Source: Lytechinus pictus (taxonomy: Eukaryota). From it: DNA of 64,000 nt. The position numbers and the translations under genes were made by a program. The notes under the pieces were generated by a model. It did no database searches, had not been told where the DNA came from, and saw only the letters and a program-made list of their open reading frames with translations. Shown here one piece after another: positions 13,201 through 61,568 of the stretch. The stretch is taken from contig NC_087245.1 in NCBI RefSeq assembly GCF_037042905.1, forward strand, positions 33,172,001 to 33,236,000, given 5' to 3'. How positions within the stretch are numbered: position 1 is the first letter of the stretch; the number at the start of each line of letters is the position of its first letter.

Positions 13201-16200
13201 AAAATTTATAAGACAGAAAGAGACAAATGAGAACAAGGATATACTATATTAAAGTGACACGAATGGTGAGCAGAATGGTTAACAAACCTTCCTTGGAAGT
13301 CCTCCGGGGTTCTGTAGCCAAACCTCTGCACCGGGGTCGACTAGGTTGCGCCTGCGAGGGGGGCGGTAGTACTGCTGGATACCGGTATCAGAATCATAAC
13401 CTGACTGAGAGTTGGTGCGGCGTGGTGGCCTGGACTGGGTTGCTGGCGGGGTCCTATCCACAAAATCTAATCAAACAAGTAAAAGAGAGTTAGACTAGAT
13501 TCAAAATCAAGACATGACAAAAAAGAAGAAAAATGTGGGTAAGTTTAAATTCAAAGTTTTCTTTTTTGGTAAAGCATATGCCCATCTTCCTTCATAAGGA
13601 TTAATAAACACATTCAACAGGTAAAAGAAAGGGAAATATCTAATTGTATTGCTTTACAATAATGGCTTTGAAATTCCAATTATAATGAAATGCATCATAT
13701 TTGACAACAAAGACAGGGTTGTACAGTATAACATCATACTTTATATCCATACCACATTTCAATATTTGTGTTCTTCAAAGATTCGGGACAAAATGAAAGA
13801 GAAAGGATAGAAAATAACAGATATTATACAATAAATGGATATGACAAATGAGGAAAAATGAAAATGATTGAAAAATTAATATGGATTTCAAAAAGAGATA
13901 AATCAGAAAAATATTACTCACTTGGCGATCTGTCGGCCACCACCCCTCTTGGTATGTTGTCTACCTCTGTTGGTTCATCAATGTGCAGATCAACTTCATC
14001 AAAGTTCTTTTTAGGTGTGGACGTAGCCTGAGGTCTGTGATTGGTCAATGTTTGAGATGTGTTATGGTACCCACCACTGGATTGGTGGGTTTGAAATTGA
14101 GTTCGGTTAATCCTGTCATCTGATTGGTTGTTGTTGTTGAGTTGATGGTGAGAAAGGATGGCACGGTTGTCTAGTGAGGCATGCGTGTTATGGTTAGCAT
14201 CAATCGATGATGAATTGTAAGGGGCACTGAGTTTCTGGATTTCATTGCTCCAGTGAGAGAGCATCTTGACAGCATCATCAAGATTACTGAAGGGATCCTC
14301 ATTAGTAGAGTTGTTATTATTAGTCTCAAGGAGTTCATCAAGGCCAGAGTTGCTCACACTACGGGTAAAGACTCGACCTTCTTTGTTGTAGGAAGGGGTG
14401 CTTCCATGCATGGAGGAGAGAGAGGGATGGGTTGTGTTAAAGGTCACACTTTGTGATGGGTTAGTCGCCTCCACATGCAGGGTTTGTTTGTTTAACGTCC
14501 GCACATTTCGCTCAGTCCTAGCCGGCTGCTGATTATGAAGAAGATGGTCGGGCAATCGCGACTCTGGAAGATGAAAATGACGACCCACCGGACTCTTTTC
14601 GCCATCCTTCGGTTGCATAGGACTGGTTGGAAAGAACCTCTGTGATGCAGAAGGGCCTGGCAAAGGTTGACCAGTCTGTTGCATAGAATTGCTGTTATAG
14701 CTATACCCGTAATTATTCCAGTGCTCTATCTCTTCTCTCCTGTTAGGAACATTATTGGATACCATCTCACGTAAATTATGGTCCTGGTGCTTGCGGGACA
14801 GAGTCCCACCATCTTGCGGAGTCCTACTACGAGTGTTACCCTTAGGGGGTAAGGTTGCCAAATTTTCAAACTGTGGCCTCCCTGGACGCTGTGGGATAGG
14901 CTGGACTACATTTGTTTTACTTTGATTTGTGCCACTACCCCTCGGATTCTTGCTACTGGTTATTATCTCATCCCGCAAATCAAACTGAACCTTATTACCA
15001 CCTTTCTGGCTGCTATCTAATTTACTTTCCCTAGTCCTATCATAAGAGTGTTCCTTTGAACCCACACATGTGCCTTGATTACCATTATTAGTGCCTCTTC
15101 GCAGCTCCCTAATCCTGTTCATAACCCAATCATAAGAGGGGAGTGTTGGAGGTACAGAGGATGCCCTTGGTGGCTGTTCCACCTCAGGCGACAGGTCCCT
15201 TTGGTAGCTACCTATGGGCAATCTGGACCCTTGCTTCTCGCTTTGGTCATGAAAACTGACTTTTGGTCGCTCGTTTGGAATAGGAATGGGTCTTGAAAGA
15301 CTTGGTACACTTGATGGAGAGAGGAGGAAGTCTGCTTTTCTGAATGCAGACTTCAGCAAATGTTGGGAAGGGGTGAGATCTGACTGACCGGTTCTTTCTC
15401 TACTGCTTGTATCGGGAGTATGGGAGACGGACTCATATTCCCGATCCCCGGAGGTTATCTGGGAAGGATGCACAGAGGAACCCTTTTGGGGAGTAGACTG
15501 GTATTGTGAGTTACTACTGGAAGACTGTTGTGTGTGGACGTACTGATGTGATTGGTTATTATGAGAATGATACCCATTACCAGGATGATTCCCGCTACCA
15601 TGGTTACGCTGTGATTGGTAATAAGGACTATTGTCATTTCTATAGTGATGAGGATAGTGAGAAGTAGGTATAGATGAAGTAGAAGAGGAGGAAGAAGAGG
15701 AGTGAATGGAAGTATCATAGAGATGCTCTCCCATGGATGTTGAGACTGACAGAGGAACAAAGGCAGATGTTGGAGAGCGTAAATTTCCTGAGGATATGGC
15801 TGCGGGCTGCCCACCATGCTGTTTCTGAAGGCTTGAGGAAGTCCTTGTAGCATCGCCTGGCCTTGGAAGAAAGCTATCAACCTCTTCATAAGGATTAACA
15901 CGAATATTGACTTTAGGCTGATGCTGCGGTGACGATGATTGCTCTATCGCTTTACTACCAGAGTTACTCTTCCACTGGGTAATGGGTATAGCTGGATAAT
16001 GATAGGACCCATCCTTGTTTAGAACAGCTTCAACTTGGACAGTCTTCTTCCTCCGCTCTGTGGTGTTTCTAATGGTGGTCTCAGAGCCATCATTTCCCTT
16101 GTACCTTGTCACATCGATACTAGTTTCATGTGGGCTCACTCCTGAGAGACCAGATGTCAAGGTCTGGTAAGAAGAGGACTTGTAACCAGAATCAACCGAA

Positions 16201-19200
16201 GGTGTCAAGGAGTTGGAATCGGACACCCTGGATGATACCTTCAACGGTACACTACTGCTGCATGCCGTTTTGGTATTCATAGCAAAGCTGGCATGTCCAG
16301 AAGAAGTGTTTGTAAATGGCACGCTACCAGCTTGAGAGGCTAGCTCTGTCCGTGACTGGTACCGCCTCTGTTCCTGTGCGGAATTGCTATGGCTATTGTG
16401 GTAGTGAAGGTTTGGTAGATGCATGAATATATCGTAGGCAGACACACGCCATGATAAACACCAACAAACAGGAATAAATATGGAGGAAGGCAGAGATTAA
16501 AAGGAAGATGTTAGTGGATCATACCATGTTAATAATAACTTTAATAAAAACCAGGTGAATTCACAAATTGGTTAATAGAGTTGCTACTTGCGACTGTCAT
16601 GAAATTACCCCCAAATCACCTCCTTTATATGATTTTAAACAGCTTTGATGTTTAATGCTTTGTAAATCACTATATATTTTGCTCTATTTTTTGTCATTAT
16701 TCCCCTGCAAATGTAGGCTTATCCACTTTCCCCACAGATAGTCATTTCCAAAGGCATAAGATGTAGTATACATGATAAAATAATACAAATATGACACAGT
16801 CGCAAGTAGCATCTAATTAGAAAATTCCTGAACATGCTATGAAATGTTTAATACCAATACGTATATAACTTATCATGCAATGGGTCACATCAAACACATA
16901 CCTGGGGCCTGTTTTAAAAAGAGCTGCGATTTATCAACCGCAACTATGGACGGCCAGTAACTTCAACATCTAAAATGCATGTGTGTTCAAAATATTTTCT
17001 AGATATGGTGTATATTCATACATTCATCGTTCTCTTGAAAATTCAGTTTGATTCTTTTTATTTACTAAGGAGATGTGCAAATTTCCTGTAGAAAAAAATA
17101 ATGGGAGGTATGGATTTCCAGACAGTTGAGATTGATTGGATCAATTGCAACTCTTTGTAAGACAGGGCCCAGATGTTGAAACACGGATGATCTTTAGTAA
17201 ACTCATGTAGAAACGTAATATATGAATGGCTCACCAGAATGAGAAAGAAAAAATATATGACTTAAATATGATTTAAAGAACAAATTAGGAGTTTAGTTTA
17301 ATAATTCAAATAATTCTTGATTAAAAGAAAATTAAATGGATTTAAATGAATGATTAATCACATTTTTCCAATGAGAGTATTTCAGATATCAATTTAGAAA
17401 CCCCTCCAACCAGAAAAAATAATAATAGTGAATAGAAAATAATTGCTGGTTTTGCGTTGGTGTCTCTGTTCATTTACATAAAAGATCTTGTAGTTGGTGC
17501 CAAAATGCAATGCAAACACAATCAATGTTCACCCCATGATATTCAAAATAATGCACCATGATATCATTAATGAAACCATGAAAAAAAACCATGAATTTAA
17601 GAAGATAGGAAAATTTGCATCACACATCAAAAGGGTCAGTAGTACTCCTCTTTTCCTTCACCAGCAAACCAACTTGAATAAAAAATATCACAAAGGCATC
17701 ATAACCAGCGAAGAGTCGTTCCATCTAAAAGGTCAAGTAAGGAAACCATGTGGGCCCTGGCCAAGTCTACAGGGATTAAAAATCTCTTTGCAACAAATGG
17801 GGTAAATACAAGGTCCAGAAGGGGGAAAAGCATAATATCAAAATATCAAGTTTACTAAAGAATATACAATTCTTAAATGTTCATGAGTTTGTTGGCAAAT
17901 TTTACCAATTAAAAAAAAAGAGAAATAAAAATAAGTGATGGGGGGGTCATGGTTTTATTAACACACCCATATTTAGCAGCCAATAAGGCTGAATTGCATT
18001 TGATCTGCATGAATAATCAGACATCACATATATCTTGGCCTTGAGCCTTTTCTTATAAAAATTAAAATAAAGTCACAATAAATCGTAATTTTCAAGAATG
18101 AAAATACATCACCATGCACTTGGTAGTGACTTACCCATCGTTCCTCAGTTGAGCATTGGTAAGAATGGGAGGAACTGGATCATAAGGCGTAGAAGGTGTA
18201 GCAGGGACCTTTGGTGACTGATCATCAGCAGGTCTCTGGTACACAGGGTCACGAACCCTATCATGGGTCAGATCAGATAGCTGCCTGTTGAGTGGTCTCT
18301 CATGGGGCTCCCATTCTCGGGTCGTGCTGGTGGTGACAGTCCGCTGAACGTAGCTCTGGGCTGGCTTGGCAGTGTTCATTTGCCCAAGCTCGCTAATGGA
18401 TCGCTCTAAGTCTTTTGAAATAGAAAGAGGGGGAGGTGACACACCCCGTCTCATAGACACGCCACCATCCTGAGGACCAGTCATCAGTAGGTGATCAGGT
18501 GCTGGATACATTGCATTCTGCACTGGTGTTACTTCTGTGGCCACCACTGGAGCCTGGTTGATAGGAGTGATGTTGTTACCTTGACGATCCTGCAACTTCT
18601 GCTGTTGTGCAAGCCAAGACGGTGGCTCTTCCCTCTTGGCGGACAGTGGTGGGGACACCATAAGGGGTGCCGGCTCGACGTCACCCTCAAAACGAACACG
18701 TAACTTTGGAGATGCGTTGACAGGCGTAACTCTGATGGGTTCTCCTGGGGATTCTCTCACAATGGGTCTTCCGTTTTCCCTCTCCCGCTTTTCACGAAGT
18801 TTATCCTGCTGCCTCCTGAGCCAGCCAAGCCCATCATCATCACCATTATCAGTAGGACTGACAGGGCTAACCTGTGCAGGGGATGGAGGGGATGGCTGGT
18901 ACTGTTCGGGCGCATTAGGGCCTTTCCTTAGGAGTTGGAACCTATCCTCTCTTGCTTTCAAAGGACGCGGCTCATACTTGGTATGCACAGGAGATGTTGG
19001 GCCATTTTCTAGTCTACTTGCATAAGGAGTCCTTTCTGTCACCCTACTAAGAGAGTTGGGTACGATAGGGGTCTCCACCGGCCCATTCATCTGTGCTACA
19101 TACGGTTGGGCTGGACTAGCATTGTAACCTATCTGGTTATATGTCATAGGTGTCGGTCCATTGGGAACATTGATTTGTCCTGGGTTGAGGTTCACCTGAC

Positions 19201-21498
19201 GTGGGTTTAAATTCACTTGTCCATTCTGAACCATAGGGCCACTTTGAACCACCGGTCCATTCTGGCTCACAGGACCATTCTGCATTGTCCGATGGTTTGA
19301 TCCCTTTGGCGTGATCTCATACGTGGGATTGTGCTGCTCCACAGAACGTGGCACACTAATGCCTCCATTCATCATTGGTGGTGCGTATTGCTCCTTATTC
19401 GTCACAAGAACAGGTGTGATCATTTCCTGTTGGACCACCTCCTGCTGGATCCTCTCCTGTTGTGGACCACTCTGGTTGGTGTTGGGGTTCTGCTGAAGCT
19501 TCTGCTGCATAGCGTCTGTGATCTCTGCATATGGGTTCTCAGCTTCACTGGACTCCTTCCTAGATGCTGGTTTCTTGGAGGGCGAAGAGTTCTCCTGGCC
19601 AGCAGCTTCTTCTTTGATATCCTCCTGGACTGGTGGTGGCGGTTTGGGTTTGGATTGGGAAACCGGAGCATGGCGGAGATCCTCACTCACACTAACAATG
19701 CGCCTTGTGTGGACAGGCTCATGATGGAGAACCTGGGATTAAACAATTTAGAATAAAGAAGCTGTATTTGAAGATGATGATGGTTATGATATCAAGAACA
19801 AAAGAAAGAGCACATGTATAAGTCTATTAGAACCATCATCATGATCACAATCATCATCATCACTTAATAGTAAATTCAAGAGCTTTTCTTCCAAAGCATA
19901 TAAGGATACACAATCAAAGATTATTAAAGGGAAATATGTGACGAAATACACCATCTGATACAGTTGACATCCTTAAGATACAAAATACTCTTTAGACCAA
20001 AGGCAGAATATTGAAAGTCATTATAGGCCTTTGTGACGTTATAGGGCCTATCCAGACCATAATTCAAAATTTACAACAGAACTTCCTCAAAATCTAAAGA
20101 ACCGTTTCTTTTAACCTCCATTTAAATCCCCCCCTTTGATATTTTATAGGGACCACCATCAAAGTACCCAGATTCAAGTAACTGAACAGACCTTGTTATC
20201 AGGGGATGGTGGTGCCTTCCACTGAATGTTGTTGTTCACCATAATTCCTCCATCTGTATCCTCCCCAGTGATGCCTTTGAGCAGTTCATCCAGGGCCATT
20301 CTCTCCCGGTAGTCCATGTTTCTCTTGCCTCCATCCTTGGAGGTGTGGACCTGAGGGGCTCTGTCAGGGGAGAGGACATAAGGCAAGGGGGCATTGGTAT
20401 CCCCATTGGTCAGTCTGGGGATGATCGGAGACTGCTCCGGTGAGGGTGTTTTCTTGACCTGGGCGTAGAGGCTTCCGTCAGGAGCCGAGGAGTGAGGGAT
20501 GTCCAGGATCATGTTGTTGTTGTTGTTACCTGATGTTTCATTGAGATCAGGGCCTCCATCTAGGGTAGAAAGGAACGATAAAACTTACATGTTGATCCCT
20601 TTAAAGAAACCTTTACAAAAATTATTGGCCATAATCCTCAGTGAAGCCATCAGGTATAAATATTTTTAACACATTGATTATAGGATTCAGACTTGCTCTA
20701 TCAACACCTGAATAGGAGCTACAGAATAGAAACCTCTACCTGATTTAAAATACTCTTCTTGATTTGTTGGTCTTATTTATGATTCTGGCAAAATAAATTT
20801 GATAAAATGCACACCAAGACCTTATAGAATGAAAATATAGGAAAATGAAAGACAATGGGCTTCTACCTTCAGGTCCTTCGATGATGTCATTGAAGTGTTC
20901 ATACGAATCCCATCTGATCAATGGATCATCGATGTGTTCAGACGGGAAGCTAGCTCCTGAGACATAGTCACTCCCATGGAGGGCATCGGGAGTAGAAGAG
21001 AAGATCAGTTCTACCTTGGTGAACTCGGGGAATCTAGCATCTATGAAACAAACAAACAAAAAATATCTTGAGTTCTAGTCTTCTTAAGCATTTACAAATT
21101 ACACAGTTCTGTCAGGGAAAGCACACACTCTTTTGACTTTGTTTTTGTATTTTATGCAAGGAAGTTTCGAAATGGAGACGTCTCTTTCTTTCTCTCATAA
21201 AAACAGAGGAGTTGCTCATGTATTCTTTCTCCTGTTCCATGATTACGCCAATATGGTATCATAATATGATAATGATGGTGATAAAATTCCACTGCTGATT
21301 GTTGTTATCACTATAACTATGATCATAATATTTTCTATCAGTAAATATTCTCATCATCCTCCTCCTCACAATTATCATCATCATTATCATCATAAACATC
21401 AACATCATCATCACCTTCACAATCATCATCATCATCACTACCATCATCATCATGATCATCATCATGATCATCATCATCATGATCACCATCACCATCAC

Positions 21499-54128: not shown

Positions 54129-56043
54129 TTGTTTTTACATTATCGTTTTAACTGATTGACTGCTGAATTTTGTAATTTCTCTATGCTTTAATATGAGATT
54201 ACTATACTCCAATAAACAATGTATTAATTGTAAAGGCTTTGTGGTTTAGAGTATAAATATTGTTTTGCTTCATTCATATTGAGCATTGAACCTTTGAACT
54301 GTGACTCGAAATCATATAGTCACAGATGCAAAACCTCTAGACCAATACCTTGCGTTCAGTTGAGATCATGAATGTTCTCAAGAATGCAAAAAAAAGGAGA
54401 AAACAATGGATGTTTAGTCTATACCCTCCTGCTCTATTTAGAGACCCAAGATATGAGGGTCACACGCTCTTGGACTTGACCTTGAGCATGACGTCAAAGT
54501 GACTCTGCGATTTGGGATTTAGGACTGCGGAAGAGCTTGACATGACTCCAACTCAGATGGGACTTTTATGAAGAGAGCAGGTGGAGCAAGGAGACAAGCT
54601 CGGAGAAGACCTTTGATCGATAATTCACAGCTGATGGAAGAACTCTCCACGTTATCTTCTCTGTAGCGGGTCACTCTTTTGGCGAAGACTACGATGTTGC
54701 AGCATGAGGAACATTTCACAAAAACTTTCAGTGAATTTCAGCAACTTATAAGCTACTGAAAATTCTTGCATCTGATTGGCTGAGAGCAGGAAGTCAGTGA
54801 AAATCACCCCAAAATCTCTTCATGAATTGCACCCCAGGTTTGACTTATGAGGTCTTAAATAAAGACTACTTAGCAGTATCAACAGCAAACAAAACAAAAC
54901 ACCCCCCCCCCAAAAAAAAAAAAAAAAAAAATCCACTATGTACATTGTACTTGAGTAGCAATTGACTTTTTAACTTAATCATAAATAGTACATGCTCGCA
55001 AGTGAACAATATTTATCATGGTCATCTGTTCATTTTTGTTATCTTGACAAACTTTCAATCAGTAACAGAACTTGAAGTAAATACCTTGAAACTCAATATC
55101 TTACTAAGTTTGTTTATGTAATCCTCATTTTCCTGAAGCATATTTACCTGAACCCCAAAGATGAAGTGGATCCTTTACAGGATATTTCAGTTTGGTCTTT
55201 AAGCTTTGTTATTTTTTCTTTAAAAAAATAAGGCATTTCTATGGAAAATACTAAAAGAACTAATAATTTTTCCCATAACTATTGATTGGGGGAATAAAGA
55301 AAAATAAATCAACACAGGCCTTCAAAGAAAACTCTGGGTTTCAAGACTAGTCCTATAAATGAGCTGTTCCAATATTTTCACACTTTTCTTAAAGTGGATG
55401 TGACAAACCTTATCCTAGCAGATTAAGTCACCATATTTGAGAAAATTTCAAATTGAATGTTTCAGACAGTGATCTATTAATACGGATGAATATGGTATTA
55501 GCAAAATTCTGGGTTTTTTTCTCCAAGTGACTGAATTCCTATGCTGAGTGGCCTCTAAATATATTCTTTGTTCTTTAAATTTAGCTGCAAAGTCTTTTGC
55601 ATCTGTTGTCATTAATATGAATAGGCAAAACTTCATCATGTGATATTACATGCAGGAAAATAATTTTGTTACCATAGTTAATAGGTGTCATCCTTCAATG
55701 ATCTAATTTTAATTTGCGATTAACACACAAAAGCAATCTATTCAGGACCTTGCAGGCAGGGGTTCAGGAGATTTATATGATCCCCCCATTGAAAATACGT
55801 AACAAAAATATTGTAAAATTTACCTCTTTCGGAGTGGTAACCTTTTTGGGATCAGATCTTTCTAATTCTAAAATCAATACCATATTCTCAACGAAAGCCA
55901 AATTTTGAAAGAAGGATATCCATTTTAAAGGTAAAAGAATGTAGTTGAAGCAAACAATTATTTCATGAGAAAGTCTATAAGATCAAGGTTAATTGTCACT
56001 CTATTGTCATAGATCTAGATCTGGTACATCAACATAAATTTAT

Positions 56044-59000
56044 GTTGTAGAGGCGCCTCACAGGCAGTCCCTTTTTGAGCTCCAGAATTCTTCTTATTTT
56101 GTCACATTATTATTGTTTGAATGCTATATTTACTATATCAGTTTGTAATATATATCGTCAGGATCACCCTAGACCAGTTTGGATCTGTTTGATGGCCTAC
56201 TTTGGAAAATCTGCACGGATCTAGTTTTTGCAGTTTGTCTTCATTGCTGAACCACCATTACATGCATGTTCTCCATGTATCTTGATTTTGGCTTTCAAGT
56301 TCACTCATCCACACCTTCCATTGTCTTCATCAATAGCTTCTGGACACAACAATGGAGTTGGTCAACTTGATAGCAATTGTCCTCATTGTGTCTACAATGG
56401 GAAGGAATGAAGTGGAGCCCTGTATTGGCCACCATGTATTCAAGTGCTGTTTTAAAGAACAGCTGAAACCCAGTAAGTTCCTTGGAACGCGGGTAGCATA
56501 TTATTCTAATGCCACGTCAACCTTCCAGCTTCAACTCTTGTTATCAGGAGATATTAGCTTGAACCCTGGACCAAGGAACTTTGATACCACCACGACCACC
56601 GATGAGTGTTACAATCCTGGTGATACAGCGAGAACAGAATGTAAGGTAAATCGACATGTATATGATAGAAATAAGTTACTGGAGATCAATCAGAATAGAC
56701 AGTTTCTAACAAGGTGCAGACTTCAGGATGGCGTTTGGAAGAATATATGTTCTCTCGGGATTGCTAAAAGGCAAAGGTTTCACAGAGGTAAAAGAGCAGG
56801 GAGAAGGAAGCAGAGGCATATCCCAGTATTGACAACTCCTCGTTTGCCTGTCAACAATACCTCCAGGTGTGGCATCAATTACAACAATCTGAGGAGGATA
56901 CCCAGACACGATCCTAACATTCAGTCTGGTACAAAAGTACATTTATGGAATGCACGTTCTCTCAGAAATAAGGCTTTAGTCACCTATGACTACATTCTTG
57001 AACATGATTTAGATATATTTGTCATCACAGAATCATGGCTGAAAGATGACGATCAAGTTATCAAGGGTGAATGTACCCCACCTGGATATACGCTCATCAA
57101 CACTCCACGTAAAATGGGAAGTGGGGGAGGCATAACAGTTATCTTCAAATCTGAGCTCAAATTACAAACCCGCACTTTGGTGAATGAGTTTAGGACATTT
57201 GAGTGTGTCCATGTTGTGAACAAGTCATCGTCATCTTCATCACTATTGAGTCTGGTTGCTGTTTACCGACCGCCACCATCACCCACAAATGGACTGTCCT
57301 TGGTGGATTTCATGAGTGAATTTGATACCTTTTTGACTGATATGTATGTAATCCCAGGCAAACTAATTTTGCTTGGAGATTTCAACTTCCACATAGACAA
57401 TCTTACTAAGACAGATGTGAATGGTTTTCTCCAGGCTATATCAGCGGCCGGCTTACATCAGCATGTTACTGGTCTAACCCATTCGCAGGGACACACACTG
57501 GATCTTGTTTTCACCAGAGAATCTGAGTCAATAATCAAGAGATGCAGCGTGCAAGATATGCTGATGTCTGACCATTCTGTAGTGAGGTTGGAGCTGACAA
57601 TCCCTGTCAGTCAGCAAGAGATGATCACAAGAACCTCTCGTAATTATAAAGCAATTGATAGGGACAGATTCAGAGATTCCCTTCAAACGATGACTCAGAA
57701 GTTTTCACAACATAAGGATACTGATCATAGTTTTGACTGGTACAATGATACGCTGCGTGGTCTTATTGATTTCTTGGCTCCATCGACAGAAAGGACCTGT
57801 GCGGTACGTAGAAGAATGCCTTGGTACACCGAGGAGATCCATCTTTCTCGACGGAAAAGGTGCAGAGCTGAAAGGAAGTGGCAGAAAAGCAAGTCTGCAA
57901 TAGATCATGATAGCTATCTAATTGCAAAGCGTGAAACATCAAATCTGATCTGCAGGACAAAGATGTCCTTCTTTCGACATGCACTTTCTTCTTCAGATAC
58001 CAAGGAAGTCTACAGGACATTGGACTATTTACTGAACAGAAAGAATATGTGTCTTCCCTTCCATGACTGTGCGGAGACCTTGTGTAACCAGTTTTCTACA
58101 TTCTTTACCAACAAGATTGAAAAGATTCATGAAAGTCTTGGGGATATCACTTCATGTTCCGGGACCTCGATTGAATCTAGACCGTTTTCATCATCTCCTA
58201 TGGTCTGTTTTGATCTGACAACTGAAGATGAGATATTGAAAATCATCAAGGGTTCTGCAAGTAAGTCATGCAGCCTGGATCCCATTCCTACATGGTTCTT
58301 GAAGGAAAACATCCAAGATCTTCTTCCCATCATAACCAAGATAGTCAACTCCTCGCTCTCATCAGGAAACTTTCCAGCGGCAGCGAGAACTGCAGTTATA
58401 CGACCACTTCTTAAAAAGCCATCACTCGACAGGATCTGTCTTTCCAATTATAGACCTGTGTCCAATTTGAGTTTTATTGGAAAGATCATTGAAAAGGTTG
58501 TATGTCGAAGACTTATGGATCACATGGCTGATAATGACCTGTTTGAGCAACACCAATCGGCATACAGACCACACCACAGTACGGAAACAGCTCTAGTGAA
58601 GGTGAAAAATGATATAATGTTTGCCTTAGATAAAGGTCATGTGGCACTTTTGTTGTCACTTGATCTATCAGCAGCATTCGATACCATCGACAGGCAAATT
58701 TTGATATCTCGTATGTCAAACAGGTTAGGAGTCAACGGTATTGCACTCAAGTGGTTCAAATCCTACCTTGCAGACTGGACTACCAAAGTAGAAATAGGTG
58801 GGAAGTCATCTAAGTGTAGTGCGAGTTCTATAGGCTTGCCGCAGGGGTCTGTATTTGGGCCGATCGGCTACTGTATCTACACCTTACCTGTAGGAGACAT
58901 CGCTCGCCATCATAATGTCTTCTACCATACTTATGCTGATGACATACAGCTTTACGTAACATTTGATCCTAAGGTTTGCAGTGTAGATGAAGCGAAGAAG

Positions 59001-59879
59001 ACTCTTTGTGCTTGTGTCACAGACATCTGTAGTTGGATGACTCTTAACAGACTTAAACTCAATGAAGGAAAGACTGAATTTCTTGTCATAGGTTCAAGTC
59101 ATAACCTTCGTTCCCTTGGTGATGTTAGCCTTGGTATTGGTTCTACTACTATTGTATCATCCAAATCTGTTAGAAACCTTGGTGCTTACTTTGATTGTAA
59201 TATGAACATGTTAGAACAAGTTAATCAATTATGTAAATCTGTCAGATTCCATCTAAGAAACATATCGCAGATAAGAAAGTACATAACTGAAGAAACCTGC
59301 CACAGTGCTGTTCGTTGTCATATTTTGTCCAGATTAGATTACTGTAACAGCCTATTAACATCTGTTCCCCAAGTGTATTTGAAGCGCCTACAAAGTTTAC
59401 AAAACTGGGCAGCCCGTATTATCTTTAAGGTGGACCGACGTCATGATCCTGGCCCTTTACTTAAATCTCTTCATTGGCTCCCTGTAAAGAAGAGAATTGT
59501 CTTTAAATTACTTCTTTTTGTCTTCAAAGCCTTTAATAACCAGATGCCAAAATATATCAAAGATAGCCTTGCTTCCCATAGACCAACTCGCCCTAATCTC
59601 CGTTCATCTAAAGACCCATATTTGCTTGCCATACCCAAAACTCGTACAAAAACATTTAGTGTTACTGCTTCTAAAGAATGGAACAACATCCCCACTTTCA
59701 TTAAATCATCAAACTCTTCAGATCAATTTAAGAAACTTCTAAAAACATACCTCTTTTCCGATTAATTTCCTTTGCGTGTATTTGTATTGTAATTATTATG
59801 TACTTTTTTTTTAAATCGTTTGTAAACGCTGTGATATAGTTAACTATGGAGAGCGTACTAAATGCTAGTTATTATTATT
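56044..59879 (+). mobile_element. L2/CR1-group LINE with ~300-bp 5' region and short 3' UTR ending in (ATT)n
   Basis: Intact ORF; 3' end TGTAAACGCT...AGCGTACTAAATGCTAGTTATTATTATT. The 5' boundary is approximate. Confidence 0.85.
56352..59765 (+). CDS. LINE ORF: APE endonuclease + reverse transcriptase (L2/CR1-group non-LTR retrotransposon), 1137 aa, uninterrupted
   Basis: APE motifs WNARSL, ITESWL, VYRPP, LGDFN, GHTLDLV, SDH. RT motifs NYRPVSNLSFIGK, QSAYR..HSTETAL, LDLSAAFDTID, GLPQGSVFGP, YADDIQLY, LKLNEGKTE. C-terminal SRLDYCNS and LHWLPV are typical of the L2 group. Confidence 0.96.
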   Translation: MELVNLIAIVLIVSTMGRNEVEPCIGHHVFKCCFKEQLKPSKFLGTRVAYYSNATSTFQLQLLLSGDISLNPGPRNFDTTTTTDECYNPGDTARTECKVNRHVYDRNKLLEINQNRQFLTRCRLQDGVWKNICSLGIAKRQRFHRGKRAGRRKQRHIPVLTTPRLPVNNTSRCGINYNNLRRIPRHDPNIQSGTKVHLWNARSLRNKALVTYDYILEHDLDIFVITESWLKDDDQVIKGECTPPGYTLINTPRKMGSGGGITVIFKSELKLQTRTLVNEFRTFECVHVVNKSSSSSSLLSLVAVYRPPPSPTNGLSLVDFMSEFDTFLTDMYVIPGKLILLGDFNFHIDNLTKTDVNGFLQAISAAGLHQHVTGLTHSQGHTLDLVFTRESESIIKRCSVQDMLMSDHSVVRLELTIPVSQQEMITRTSRNYKAIDRDRFRDSLQTMTQKFSQHKDTDHSFDWYNDTLRGLIDFLAPSTERTCAVRRRMPWYTEEIHLSRRKRCRAERKWQKSKSAIDHDSYLIAKRETSNLICRTKMSFFRHALSSSDTKEVYRTLDYLLNRKNMCLPFHDCAETLCNQFSTFFTNKIEKIHESLGDITSCSGTSIESRPFSSSPMVCFDLTTEDEILKIIKGSASKSCSLDPIPTWFLKENIQDLLPIITKIVNSSLSSGNFPAAARTAVIRPLLKKPSLDRICLSNYRPVSNLSFIGKIIEKVVCRRLMDHMADNDLFEQHQSAYRPHHSTETALVKVKNDIMFALDKGHVALLLSLDLSAAFDTIDRQILISRMSNRLGVNGIALKWFKSYLADWTTKVEIGGKSSKCSASSIGLPQGSVFGPIGYCIYTLPVGDIARHHNVFYHTYADDIQLYVTFDPKVCSVDEAKKTLCACVTDICSWMTLNRLKLNEGKTEFLVIGSSHNLRSLGDVSLGIGSTTIVSSKSVRNLGAYFDCNMNMLEQVNQLCKSVRFHLRNISQIRKYITEETCHSAVRCHILSRLDYCNSLLTSVPQVYLKRLQSLQNWAARIIFKVDRRHDPGPLLKSLHWLPVKKRIVFKLLLFVFKAFNNQMPKYIKDSLASHRPTRPNLRSSKDPYLLAIPKTRTKTFSVTASKEWNNIPTFIKSSNSSDQFKKLLKTYLFSD

Positions 59880-61568
59880 AGGTGGTCTGTCTATGACAGA
59901 TCACCTATTGATTTCGCCAGAATTTTCTTTATTCTTTATTCTTTATTCTTTATTTATTTTTATTTCTTCCGTACACTTTTTTGTACACACGTTCACTCGA
60001 ATTCGACATGGTCAATTTCCTTCAAATTTCTGTCAAACATCAAGCCCTATGATTTCAAGTAAAATCAACTTTTTCAAGGTCATCAAGTCATCGTGACATC
60101 ATCCAGGCGCCATTTTGTGAAATCACATTGTCGATCATATCTCCATTATCAATTATCAAAAATCATTTAAATTAACATCACATTAACTTCAGGTCAAGGG
60201 TCAACAGGTCATGTCATCAAAGGTCACCTGAAGGTCACGACGCGCGCGTCAAAATTTTAAATTGCTCAAAATTACTTTTTGACCAAAGTAAAGTACGTTT
60301 CAGGTCATTTTAAGCATTTCAAAAATTTGCGCACGCACAGGTATGCGCGCGCGTTTCCGCACGTAACCCCTTCAACGCAACGCAGAAACGCCGTTTTTTT
60401 TATATCATTGCATTGATAATATAATTCTGAGCAATTTGATACCTTGATCAACCTTCTACGACCATTAATAACGAAATTAACACCCGTTAAAGTTTGCAGC
60501 ACGTGTGCGCGCGACCTCTTACTATAGGCCATATATGGGCAAAAACATGCCTATTAAAAATTCACTGTAGTTCTTTAAATAGTCCGTTGACCCCCAATTT
60601 TTTTTCATATATCGATAGAGTATGAGTTGTAGATTTGATTTCATGTCACCATTGTCCCTCAATTTGATCATGACGTCATCAAAATTGCGCCTAAACTGAA
60701 ATTTTTTTTTTTCAAAAATGACGTCATCAAATTTATGCAAATTTGATCATAACTCCGTGAATATTGATCATTTTTCGCCCAGATTTCGATATATTGTAGT
60801 TTAAAATGTACTCTTTCTCGTCAGTCATCATAAATTTTCATTTTGAAAAACGCATCATGGTGTAAAATTGCGATGAAAAGAGGCATGTCATTTTTCCTCA
60901 TTTTACGTGTAATCTCTAAGGGACATGACTTTTTCTCAAAACTAGATTCGACATTCCTCTATTTCGTGAGCTATATCTCCATTTTCTTTTGTCAGTTATC
61001 TCTGAGCTTTGAATATGTTGTAGCTGAGATTCTCAGCTTTTGGAATGTGCCCTCCATTTTTTGATCAGATGCCGGGATCATGCCCGTTTTTTGCTTGCAA
61101 AATTGGATTTGCAATTCTCAAATTTGCTTACGTGTAATCTCTATGGGAACGTGTAATCTCTATGGGGAATATCGTGGCTCAATGGATAACGCACTTGACT
61201 TGAGATTCGGGGGCGCAGGTTCGAGTCCTGGGGGTGAACAAGGTGATTTTTTTTTTCATTTTTTTTTTCTTTTTACCACCTCGTACATGATCCTTTATGG
61301 TATTTAAAAGGTATGAAAGTTAAAATTTAGCAAGATTAAACAGATTATAATTACTTTTTTCATATCACATGTATTTTCATATATCAAAGAGACCCTTTTC
61401 ACAGTTCTTTATCATCTCCCGACTTTCACAAGTATTCCATCCATAATGAACATTCCGTTGTCATCATGAAGATCATATTGATCTGCTTGAACATGGTAAT
61501 AGTGATCATGATGGCGAGAATAAGGACAGACCACCTAATTCGTCCGCATGACGAATTAAAATCTAGTT
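59877..61568 (+). mobile_element. Non-autonomous Helentron/DINE-like (HINE) element
   Basis: 5' AGGTGGTCTGTC with an adjacent partial inverted repeat GACAGATCACCT. 3' subTIR GACAGACCACCT (61525-61536), then hairpin TAATTCGTC-cgcat-GACGAATTA and a CTAGTT end. T-rich insertion site, no coding capacity. Confidence 0.72.
61164..61256 (+). ncRNA. tRNA-like/SINE-head sequence with Pol III A and B boxes inside the Helentron-like element
   Basis: A box TGGCTCAATGG (61175-61185), B box GGTTCGAGTCC (61218-61228), T-run at ~61247. The acceptor stem does not pair, so it is not a functional tRNA. Confidence 0.55.

Follow-up and report, generated by a model that had tools for sequence, protein, structure and literature searches.

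Since 2013 it has been asked why LINEs carry 2A-like motifs, many of them seemingly inactive, and how LINEs without ORF1 build an RNP. Both questions arise in the window, i.e., the whole stretch of 64,000 nucleotides of Lytechinus pictus DNA that was analysed, where the frame of a single LINE carries a hydrophobic start and, further on, a 2A-like motif with Ser for the conserved Glu. Neither the 2A-like motif in LINE ORFs nor its Ser form is new: Odon et al. 2013 (PMC3708506) describe such motifs at 40-80 aa from the start of LINE ORF2, among them forms with Ser for Glu. What bears on the two questions here is a conserved signal at a fixed spacing, a motif longer than any 20-mer screened, and natural variants with Met in place of the 2A-like site. 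The features of the element are listed below, all on the plus strand, with G/P marking the junction between the last Gly and the Pro of the motif.

56046..59880, plus: full-length, single-ORF LINE, apparently L2-type, ~3.83 kb (copy alignment; 5' end between 56031 and 56057)
56046..56351, plus: 5' UTR without ORF1, ~300 nt, short uORFs only
56352..56402, plus: signal-peptide-like segment, aa 1-17 (rule-based: ACA-ATG-G start, 14-aa uncharged core, (-3,-1) site after G17)
56397..56399, plus: Met16, second in-frame ATG, ACA-ATG-G context, possible signal-less start
56403..56480, plus: variable linker, aa 18-43, a Cys/His/Lys-enriched spacer whose sequence is not conserved
56481..56573, plus: extended 2A-like motif, aa 44-74, G.R[IV].YY.N...TF..LL.GD[IV]xxNPG/P, predicted skip or pause site G73/P74
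56661..56681, plus: YxxxxL-phi motif, aa 104-110, fitting the canonical eIF4E-binding consensus (4E-BP-like; predicted)
56736..56816, plus: WxxIxxLGI motif (aa 129-137) and basic patch (aa 145-155), conserved, aa 129-155
56946..57575, plus: APE endonuclease domain, aa 199-408 (PF03372, E 5.2e-09)
58413..59183, plus: reverse transcriptase domain, aa 688-944 (PF00078, E 3.8e-29)
59766..59880, plus: 3' UTR with a short inverted repeat (59826-59830 / 59852-59856) and an (ATT)n tail

The ORF (56352-59765, plus strand) is opened by the ATG at 56352 and encodes 1137 aa, with APE and RT in one frame. A DNA search returned six genome matches to the element. When five fetched regions were aligned, copies L037, L038 and L041 started at 56057, 56036 and 56031, four copies ended at 59876-59880 in the (ATT)n tail, and three copies were 99% identical to the element, which represents a young, intact LINE family. 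An older copy (L040/L041, G000:C11:27159000-27177000; 92-96% identity) is interrupted in the spacer between leader and APE by ~8 kb of other sequence. ORF1 is absent: copies (n=3) begin ~300 nt before the ATG, with only short uORFs between. The six upstream ATGs at 56042-56275 all have weak context, and two of them lead into a uORF in another frame that extends across the start. By eye, the element showed no target-site duplication. An L2 placement is suggested by the likeness of its RT motifs to those of STR-51/69/133/142, judged by eye; the RT tree took in only elements of the Lytechinus pictus genome, L2 references being absent from it. The inverted repeat in the 3' UTR may resemble the L2 3' stem-loop.

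The element's layout is that of the 2A-bearing single-ORF APE non-LTR elements described by Odon et al. (PMC3708506; S. purpuratus STR-51/69/133/142 in L2, with others in Rex1, Crack and CR1). As far as that description was considered, these likewise lack ORF1 and carry the motif 40-80 aa into an APE-RT ORF, a range that includes G73/P74, and they share a 90-115-aa tract leading to APE, frequent substitution of Glu (Ser included) and occurrence in several clades. By contrast, the part of the Odon text covered here has 0 occurrences of the term signal peptide, gives no YYxN extension and calls the post-2A tract motif-less, whereas the element has conserved YxxxxL and WxxIxxLGI motifs there. Our literature search, which covered sources other than Repbase notes, theses and subscription papers, showed no description of a YYxN extension, a YxxxxL motif or a separate, constantly spaced signal peptide in such LINEs.

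Conservation of the leader among LINE families

The initial annotation had seen a signal-peptide-like leader in the start of this ORF, and the first 17 residues, MELVNLIAIVLIVSTMG, bear this out. Their hydrophobic core fits the 7-15 aa criterion for signal peptides, and a simple rule gives a candidate (-3,-1) cleavage site after G17; a basic K/R in the n-region, found in 22 of 26 families, is absent from the element's start. The best 9-aa Kyte-Doolittle mean of the element, 3.39, was equalled by 0/356 internal Mets and by 3.9% of 693 flanking ATG frames.

The first 234 aa had 198 matches in the genome. Eighty-five loci were hand-picked for long frames, of which 57 passed a motif filter and gave 26 families, while 28 failed. 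With the start Met sought 60-100 codons before G/P, the spacing from Met to G/P was 72-88 codons (mean 77.7, SD 4.4) in all 26 families, ACA-ATG being present in 21, and in 28/31 intact loci no earlier Met preceded the chosen one in the open frame. A 9-aa hydrophobicity of at least 2.5 at this Met was found in 23/26 families, compared with 1.4% of the 356 internal Mets and 22.5% of the 693 flanking ATG frames, so a chance origin of the hydrophobic start is untenable. The cores in the 26 families are mostly 11-16 aa long with a basic residue in front, and 19/26 have a (-3,-1) site by simple rules.

Outside proteins have the same arrangement. A query without the signal part (A2) retrieved 14 of them; 10 have a Met 73-87 codons before G/P, all with a hydrophobic start that reaches at least 2.5 in 9. 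A profile of the full leader matched 1540 clusters at E 0.001 or better, with the core present in 139 of the best 150; the hydrophobic share of 77/106 among profile matches is circular, since the profile itself contained the signal. The relatives that carry a name come from echinoderms (Lytechinus, Diadema, Amphiura, Anneissia and Strongylocentrotus), most matches being nameless. By RT motifs compared by eye with the Odon supplement, the leader occurs in L2 and in Rex1-, Crack- and CR1-like elements. To judge from these comparisons, the signal-plus-motif leader is a family trait of many distantly related elements. The sequences of L045, L043 and L056 are alike after the YxxxxL motif, though the RT of L045 is distant and Rex1-like; leaders may possibly have been exchanged between clades.

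As to the motif itself, P74 ends at 56573 and the letters from T57 to P74 are those given in the initial annotation, whose 2A-like motif with Ser for the conserved Glu was confirmed, in a layout kept in the 26 families. Four other features had gone unmentioned there, namely the YYxN extension at aa 50-53, the YxxxxL and WxxIxxLGI motifs, and the strong-context ATG at Met16. The canonical viral 2A, D(V/I)ExNPG/P, has the G-D-I-x-x-N-P-G-P core and an upstream Leu cluster in common with the element, and the element's Leu residues at -14, -12, -11 and -10 agree with the upstream Leu criterion (-13 to -10) of class A 2A. However, viral 2A is 18-22 aa long and has Glu, whereas the element has Ser, so that the D(V/I)ExNPGP core with Glu is not matched, and its conserved region extends to about -29. 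Across families the motif (YYxN..F..LL.GD[IV]xxNPGP) is ~30 aa long. Part of this conservation is built in because the loci were hand-picked and passed through the motif filter, which partly imposes YYxN and GD[IV]..PG; the conserved positions outside the filter among the 26 families were G-29 (16), R-27 (14), F-16 (23), L-12 (19), L-11 (20) and P+1 (26). Conservation ends at P+1, a position that the filter does not fix and that is nevertheless kept in 26/26, and its span is about one exit-tunnel length. The ribosome exit tunnel holds ~30-35 residues. The substitution of Glu by Ser, noted in the initial annotation, is not supported as a special point of this copy: in the 26 families the position is held by S (6), H (6), N (5), E (only 3), D (2) and Q (2), and in the 139 among the best 150 of the 1540 outside clusters by N (39), H (28), E (22), S (20), Q (13) and D (11).

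The initial annotation had also suggested comparing conservation and dN/dS of the leader across copies. The element's own copies are uninformative in this respect (99% identical), and distant pairs are near dS saturation, hence only pN was used. For four pairs at 57-69% identity, pN was 0.14-0.18 in the 31-aa motif, 0.16-0.26 in APE-RT and 0.39-0.65 in the linker; in two pairs at 55% identity the motif was less constrained (0.33 versus 0.27 for APE-RT). By this measure, the 2A-like motif is under purifying selection, as constrained as the enzyme in four of the pairs compared. Because the pN of the motif is like or below that of APE-RT and the pN of the linker is far above it, the motif appears to be selected and the linker to be a spacer. 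Conservation held for the motif, which is constrained between families, but not for the linker, which drifts, with pairwise identities of 15-40% where the enzyme has 59-72%. Two candidate features of the motif were rejected. A stop-transfer transmembrane helix does not suit so polar a segment (best 19-aa mean at most 1.02), and N-glycosylation at YYxN is not a shared feature, S/T at -19 occurring in 13/26 families, no higher than at neighbouring positions.

Families without the 2A-like site

The basic patch and APE domain that the initial annotation had put after the motif are both present, but they are not adjacent to it: ~70 and ~125 residues lie between, the patch being at aa 145-155 and APE starting at aa 199. 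Within this tract, the YxxxxL motif was found in 23/26 families versus 10/410 background windows (13/26 versus 3/410 in its strict form), and it may bind eIF4E near the new N-terminus. No protein family or structure match was found for the N-terminal region: a word-based protein search with aa 1-160 gave 0/92 candidates, a PDB sequence search with aa 97-158 gave 0 matches (one other match, E 1.9, was to a T2A tag), and the best score of 0.80 in an ESM Atlas search offered no lead.

How could the enzyme be made without the signal? Met counts between start and APE cover 25 of the 26 families, and in 5/25 this interval has no Met at all, so that AUG re-start cannot yield a signal-less RT there. 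A usable second Met is missing in most families, and only 2/26 of the 2A-bearing families have a Met between G/P and the YxxxxL motif. Met16 in its present form is not shared by the other 24 families of this Met count, and it possibly gives the element's family a bypass of the signal.

A different picture emerged from families lacking the 2A-like site, which were obtained via an RT-only search and a search with a 2A-less leader. On the RT tree a single clade of these families is rejected (p-AU 1.6e-121, 5 changes); the tree left out L075, L076, L026 and L077, which had too little RT, and the change count left out L087 and L089, which are broken 2A-bearing copies. Ten 2A-less families keep the hydrophobic stretch, and in 9/10, by eye, a Met lies no more than 7 aa from the YxxxxL motif. 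In L070, L077, L095, L109 and L110, for instance, the hydrophobic start leads straight into a second Met in strong context and then the YxxxxL motif. The two devices, Met and 2A-like site, seem interchangeable by this comparison; in both designs the enzyme would start at about the same signal-free point. Of the comparative arguments that the 2A-like site may separate the chain, this swap is the main one. In one 2A-less family, L093, the hydrophobic stretch and the YxxxxL motif are separated by a short tandem repeat rich in Tyr, Asn and Gly.

Possible roles of the leader

We tentatively favour a mechanism that joins SRP targeting to a timed pause and partial StopGo, which would free cytosolic APE-RT at the ER; we consider it quite possible, at a little short of an even chance. 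In this scheme SRP would be recruited by the hydrophobic start, docking the ribosome and the element RNA at the ER. From the length of the tunnel, a ribosome at codon 73 would have just exposed the signal, which is the stage of SRP engagement, and the 30-residue motif would pause it at G73/P74. Some of the ribosomes would then let the 73-aa leader go into the translocon and carry on, giving a cytosolic endonuclease-RT beside its own RNA, while those that do not skip would send RT into the ER, where it would be lost, damping the element. The partitioning of RT between cytosol and ER proposed in the initial annotation is better read as targeting plus damping, because RT in the ER lumen would probably be a dead end. 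Among the points against this mechanism, published short forms were mostly negative, the n-region K/R is missing from the element, and Met16 could bypass the signal.

The published tests, as far as these sources were considered, are mixed. Odon et al. tested two E-to-S forms, neither of which was active in vitro, and offered decay as the simplest reading, while three sea-urchin elements, STR-51, STR-69 (E to Q) and STR-197 (E to N), gave skipping in reticulocyte lysate (PMC3708506). In the human-cell reporter screen of 20-mers (-19 to +1) by Snell and Matreyek (10.64898/2026.06.17.732966 / PMC13405545), our tally by eye of the machine-assigned classes gave 26/30 family-like 20-mers as non-skipping, 2 as skipping and 2 as fall-off. 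All Ser-bearing family-like forms were non-skipping (11/11), but so were most Glu forms; 5 of all 6 GDISLNPGP 20-mers were non-skipping, and one 20-mer was identical to family L044 (PMC13405545). These 20-mers leave out YYxN (-24 to -21) and the signal. In the saturation mutagenesis of P2A/F2A by Baral et al., only E14H was above threshold at E14, and one natural Ser form skipped at 39% (10.64898/2026.09.24.754024). Rare core variants were active in natural context, and His at the Glu position was functional in viral 2As (PMC12846837).

A motif that stalls the ribosome and leaves the chain unsplit, lowering output or only timing ER docking, with RT coming from translocation escapees or Met16 starts, is somewhat unlikely in our view but deserves weight. 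It would suit the mostly negative data for short forms, the strong context of Met16, the reduced protein from 59% of the ORF2p-associated 2A-like peptides tested (PMC13405545, in the part considered), and the purifying selection, which any tunnel-acting peptide could show. Among family-like 20-mers, however, that reduced class made up only 2/30 in the same source, the sea-urchin relatives did skip in the tests reported in PMC3708506, P+1 is retained in 26/26, and most families have no second Met to use. We regard as clearly improbable an uncleaved anchor, in which the hydrophobic start would keep the entire APE-RT at the ER or nuclear envelope, on the cytosolic side, and the 2A-like site would be optional. 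In its favour, the hydrophobic start is retained in the 2A-less families, where the conserved N-terminus of the enzyme follows directly, but the fixed spacing and the second Met are left unexplained. Under the positive-inside rule, a basic residue before the core sets membrane orientation, and the short cores with a basic residue in front favour the opposite one.

Two further explanations fare worse. The initial annotation had proposed release of a ~73-aa secreted or membrane-targeted peptide; that the released peptide of 56-73 aa is itself a functional secreted product is very improbable: the signal-like start has cleavage candidates and the linker is enriched ~2.5-fold in Cys and His, but the linker drifts, its Cys count runs from 0 to 5 with no common pattern in the 26 families, 2A-less families delete the peptide, and the N-terminal region has no family or structure match. 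Least credible of all is a vestige, a once-active 2A that decayed by E-to-S behind a hydrophobic start that arose by chance. The negative assays of Ser forms and the preference for decay in the part of Odon et al. considered (PMC3708506) speak for it. The motif is nevertheless not a decayed relic, because it is under purifying selection, which already largely refutes this explanation, and the young intact copies, the excess of hydrophobic starts over both controls and the 1540 clusters matched by the leader profile do not suit it either.

We also consider a more specific form of the SRP-targeting mechanism, unlikely as it stands, in which the Glu-independent 30-aa motif would skip only with the signal engaged at the ER; the putative eIF4E-binding motif of the freed RT would then grip the cap complex of its own RNA and replace ORF1p for cis-preference in single-ORF LINEs of several clades. 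In that case short reporters would fail because skipping needs an ER-engaged signal.

Parts of the SRP-targeting mechanism have counterparts elsewhere. In XBP1u, SecM, MifM and VemP, a hydrophobic targeting segment is followed at a fixed distance by a tunnel-length nascent peptide, which stalls without splitting the chain; these signal-coupled arrest peptides resemble the element in layout, chain splitting being what our proposal adds. Signal function and StopGo are combined in sea-urchin NLRs, whose N-terminal 2A-like signal sequences give cytosolic versus secretory products (Roulston et al. 2016, PMC4981915, in the part considered). There, however, one 26-aa peptide of host immune genes is both signal and 2A, whereas the retrotransposon has separate parts ~75 codons apart with a linker between, G/P at 72-88 and a non-canonical core. 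Coupling to SRP and the ER, proposed here, was shown for Ty1, whose RNA is brought to the ER by way of SRP during translation (Doh et al. 2014, PMC3945221, again in part); unlike the element, Ty1 is an LTR element without 2A, and its Gag transits the lumen. If true, the SRP-targeting mechanism would bring the ER into the LINE replication cycle and define a class of context-dependent StopGo peptides.

Genomic surroundings of the element

On the minus strand at 538-28697, the window contains several long open frames rich in Pro, Gln and Ser (up to 860 aa, at 13914-16496; 535 aa at 18131-19738), which resemble exons of a single large host gene; the LINE, being on the other strand, perhaps sits in one of its introns. 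RNA reads on the element numbered 39-51 per run (drawn from ~6% of 3 runs), with the first mate on the plus strand across the element and past its 3' end. Since the first mate was mostly on the minus strand for a plus-strand gene used as a sparse control, the element's reads are probably antisense read-through; they carry no support for sense expression, and we did not count them as evidence of it. Just upstream of the LINE, a short and very abundant repeat occupies 55925-55976, and many reads and contigs match that piece alone. A tRNA-like stretch with A- and B-box-like motifs at ~61170-61240 is probably the head of a SINE.
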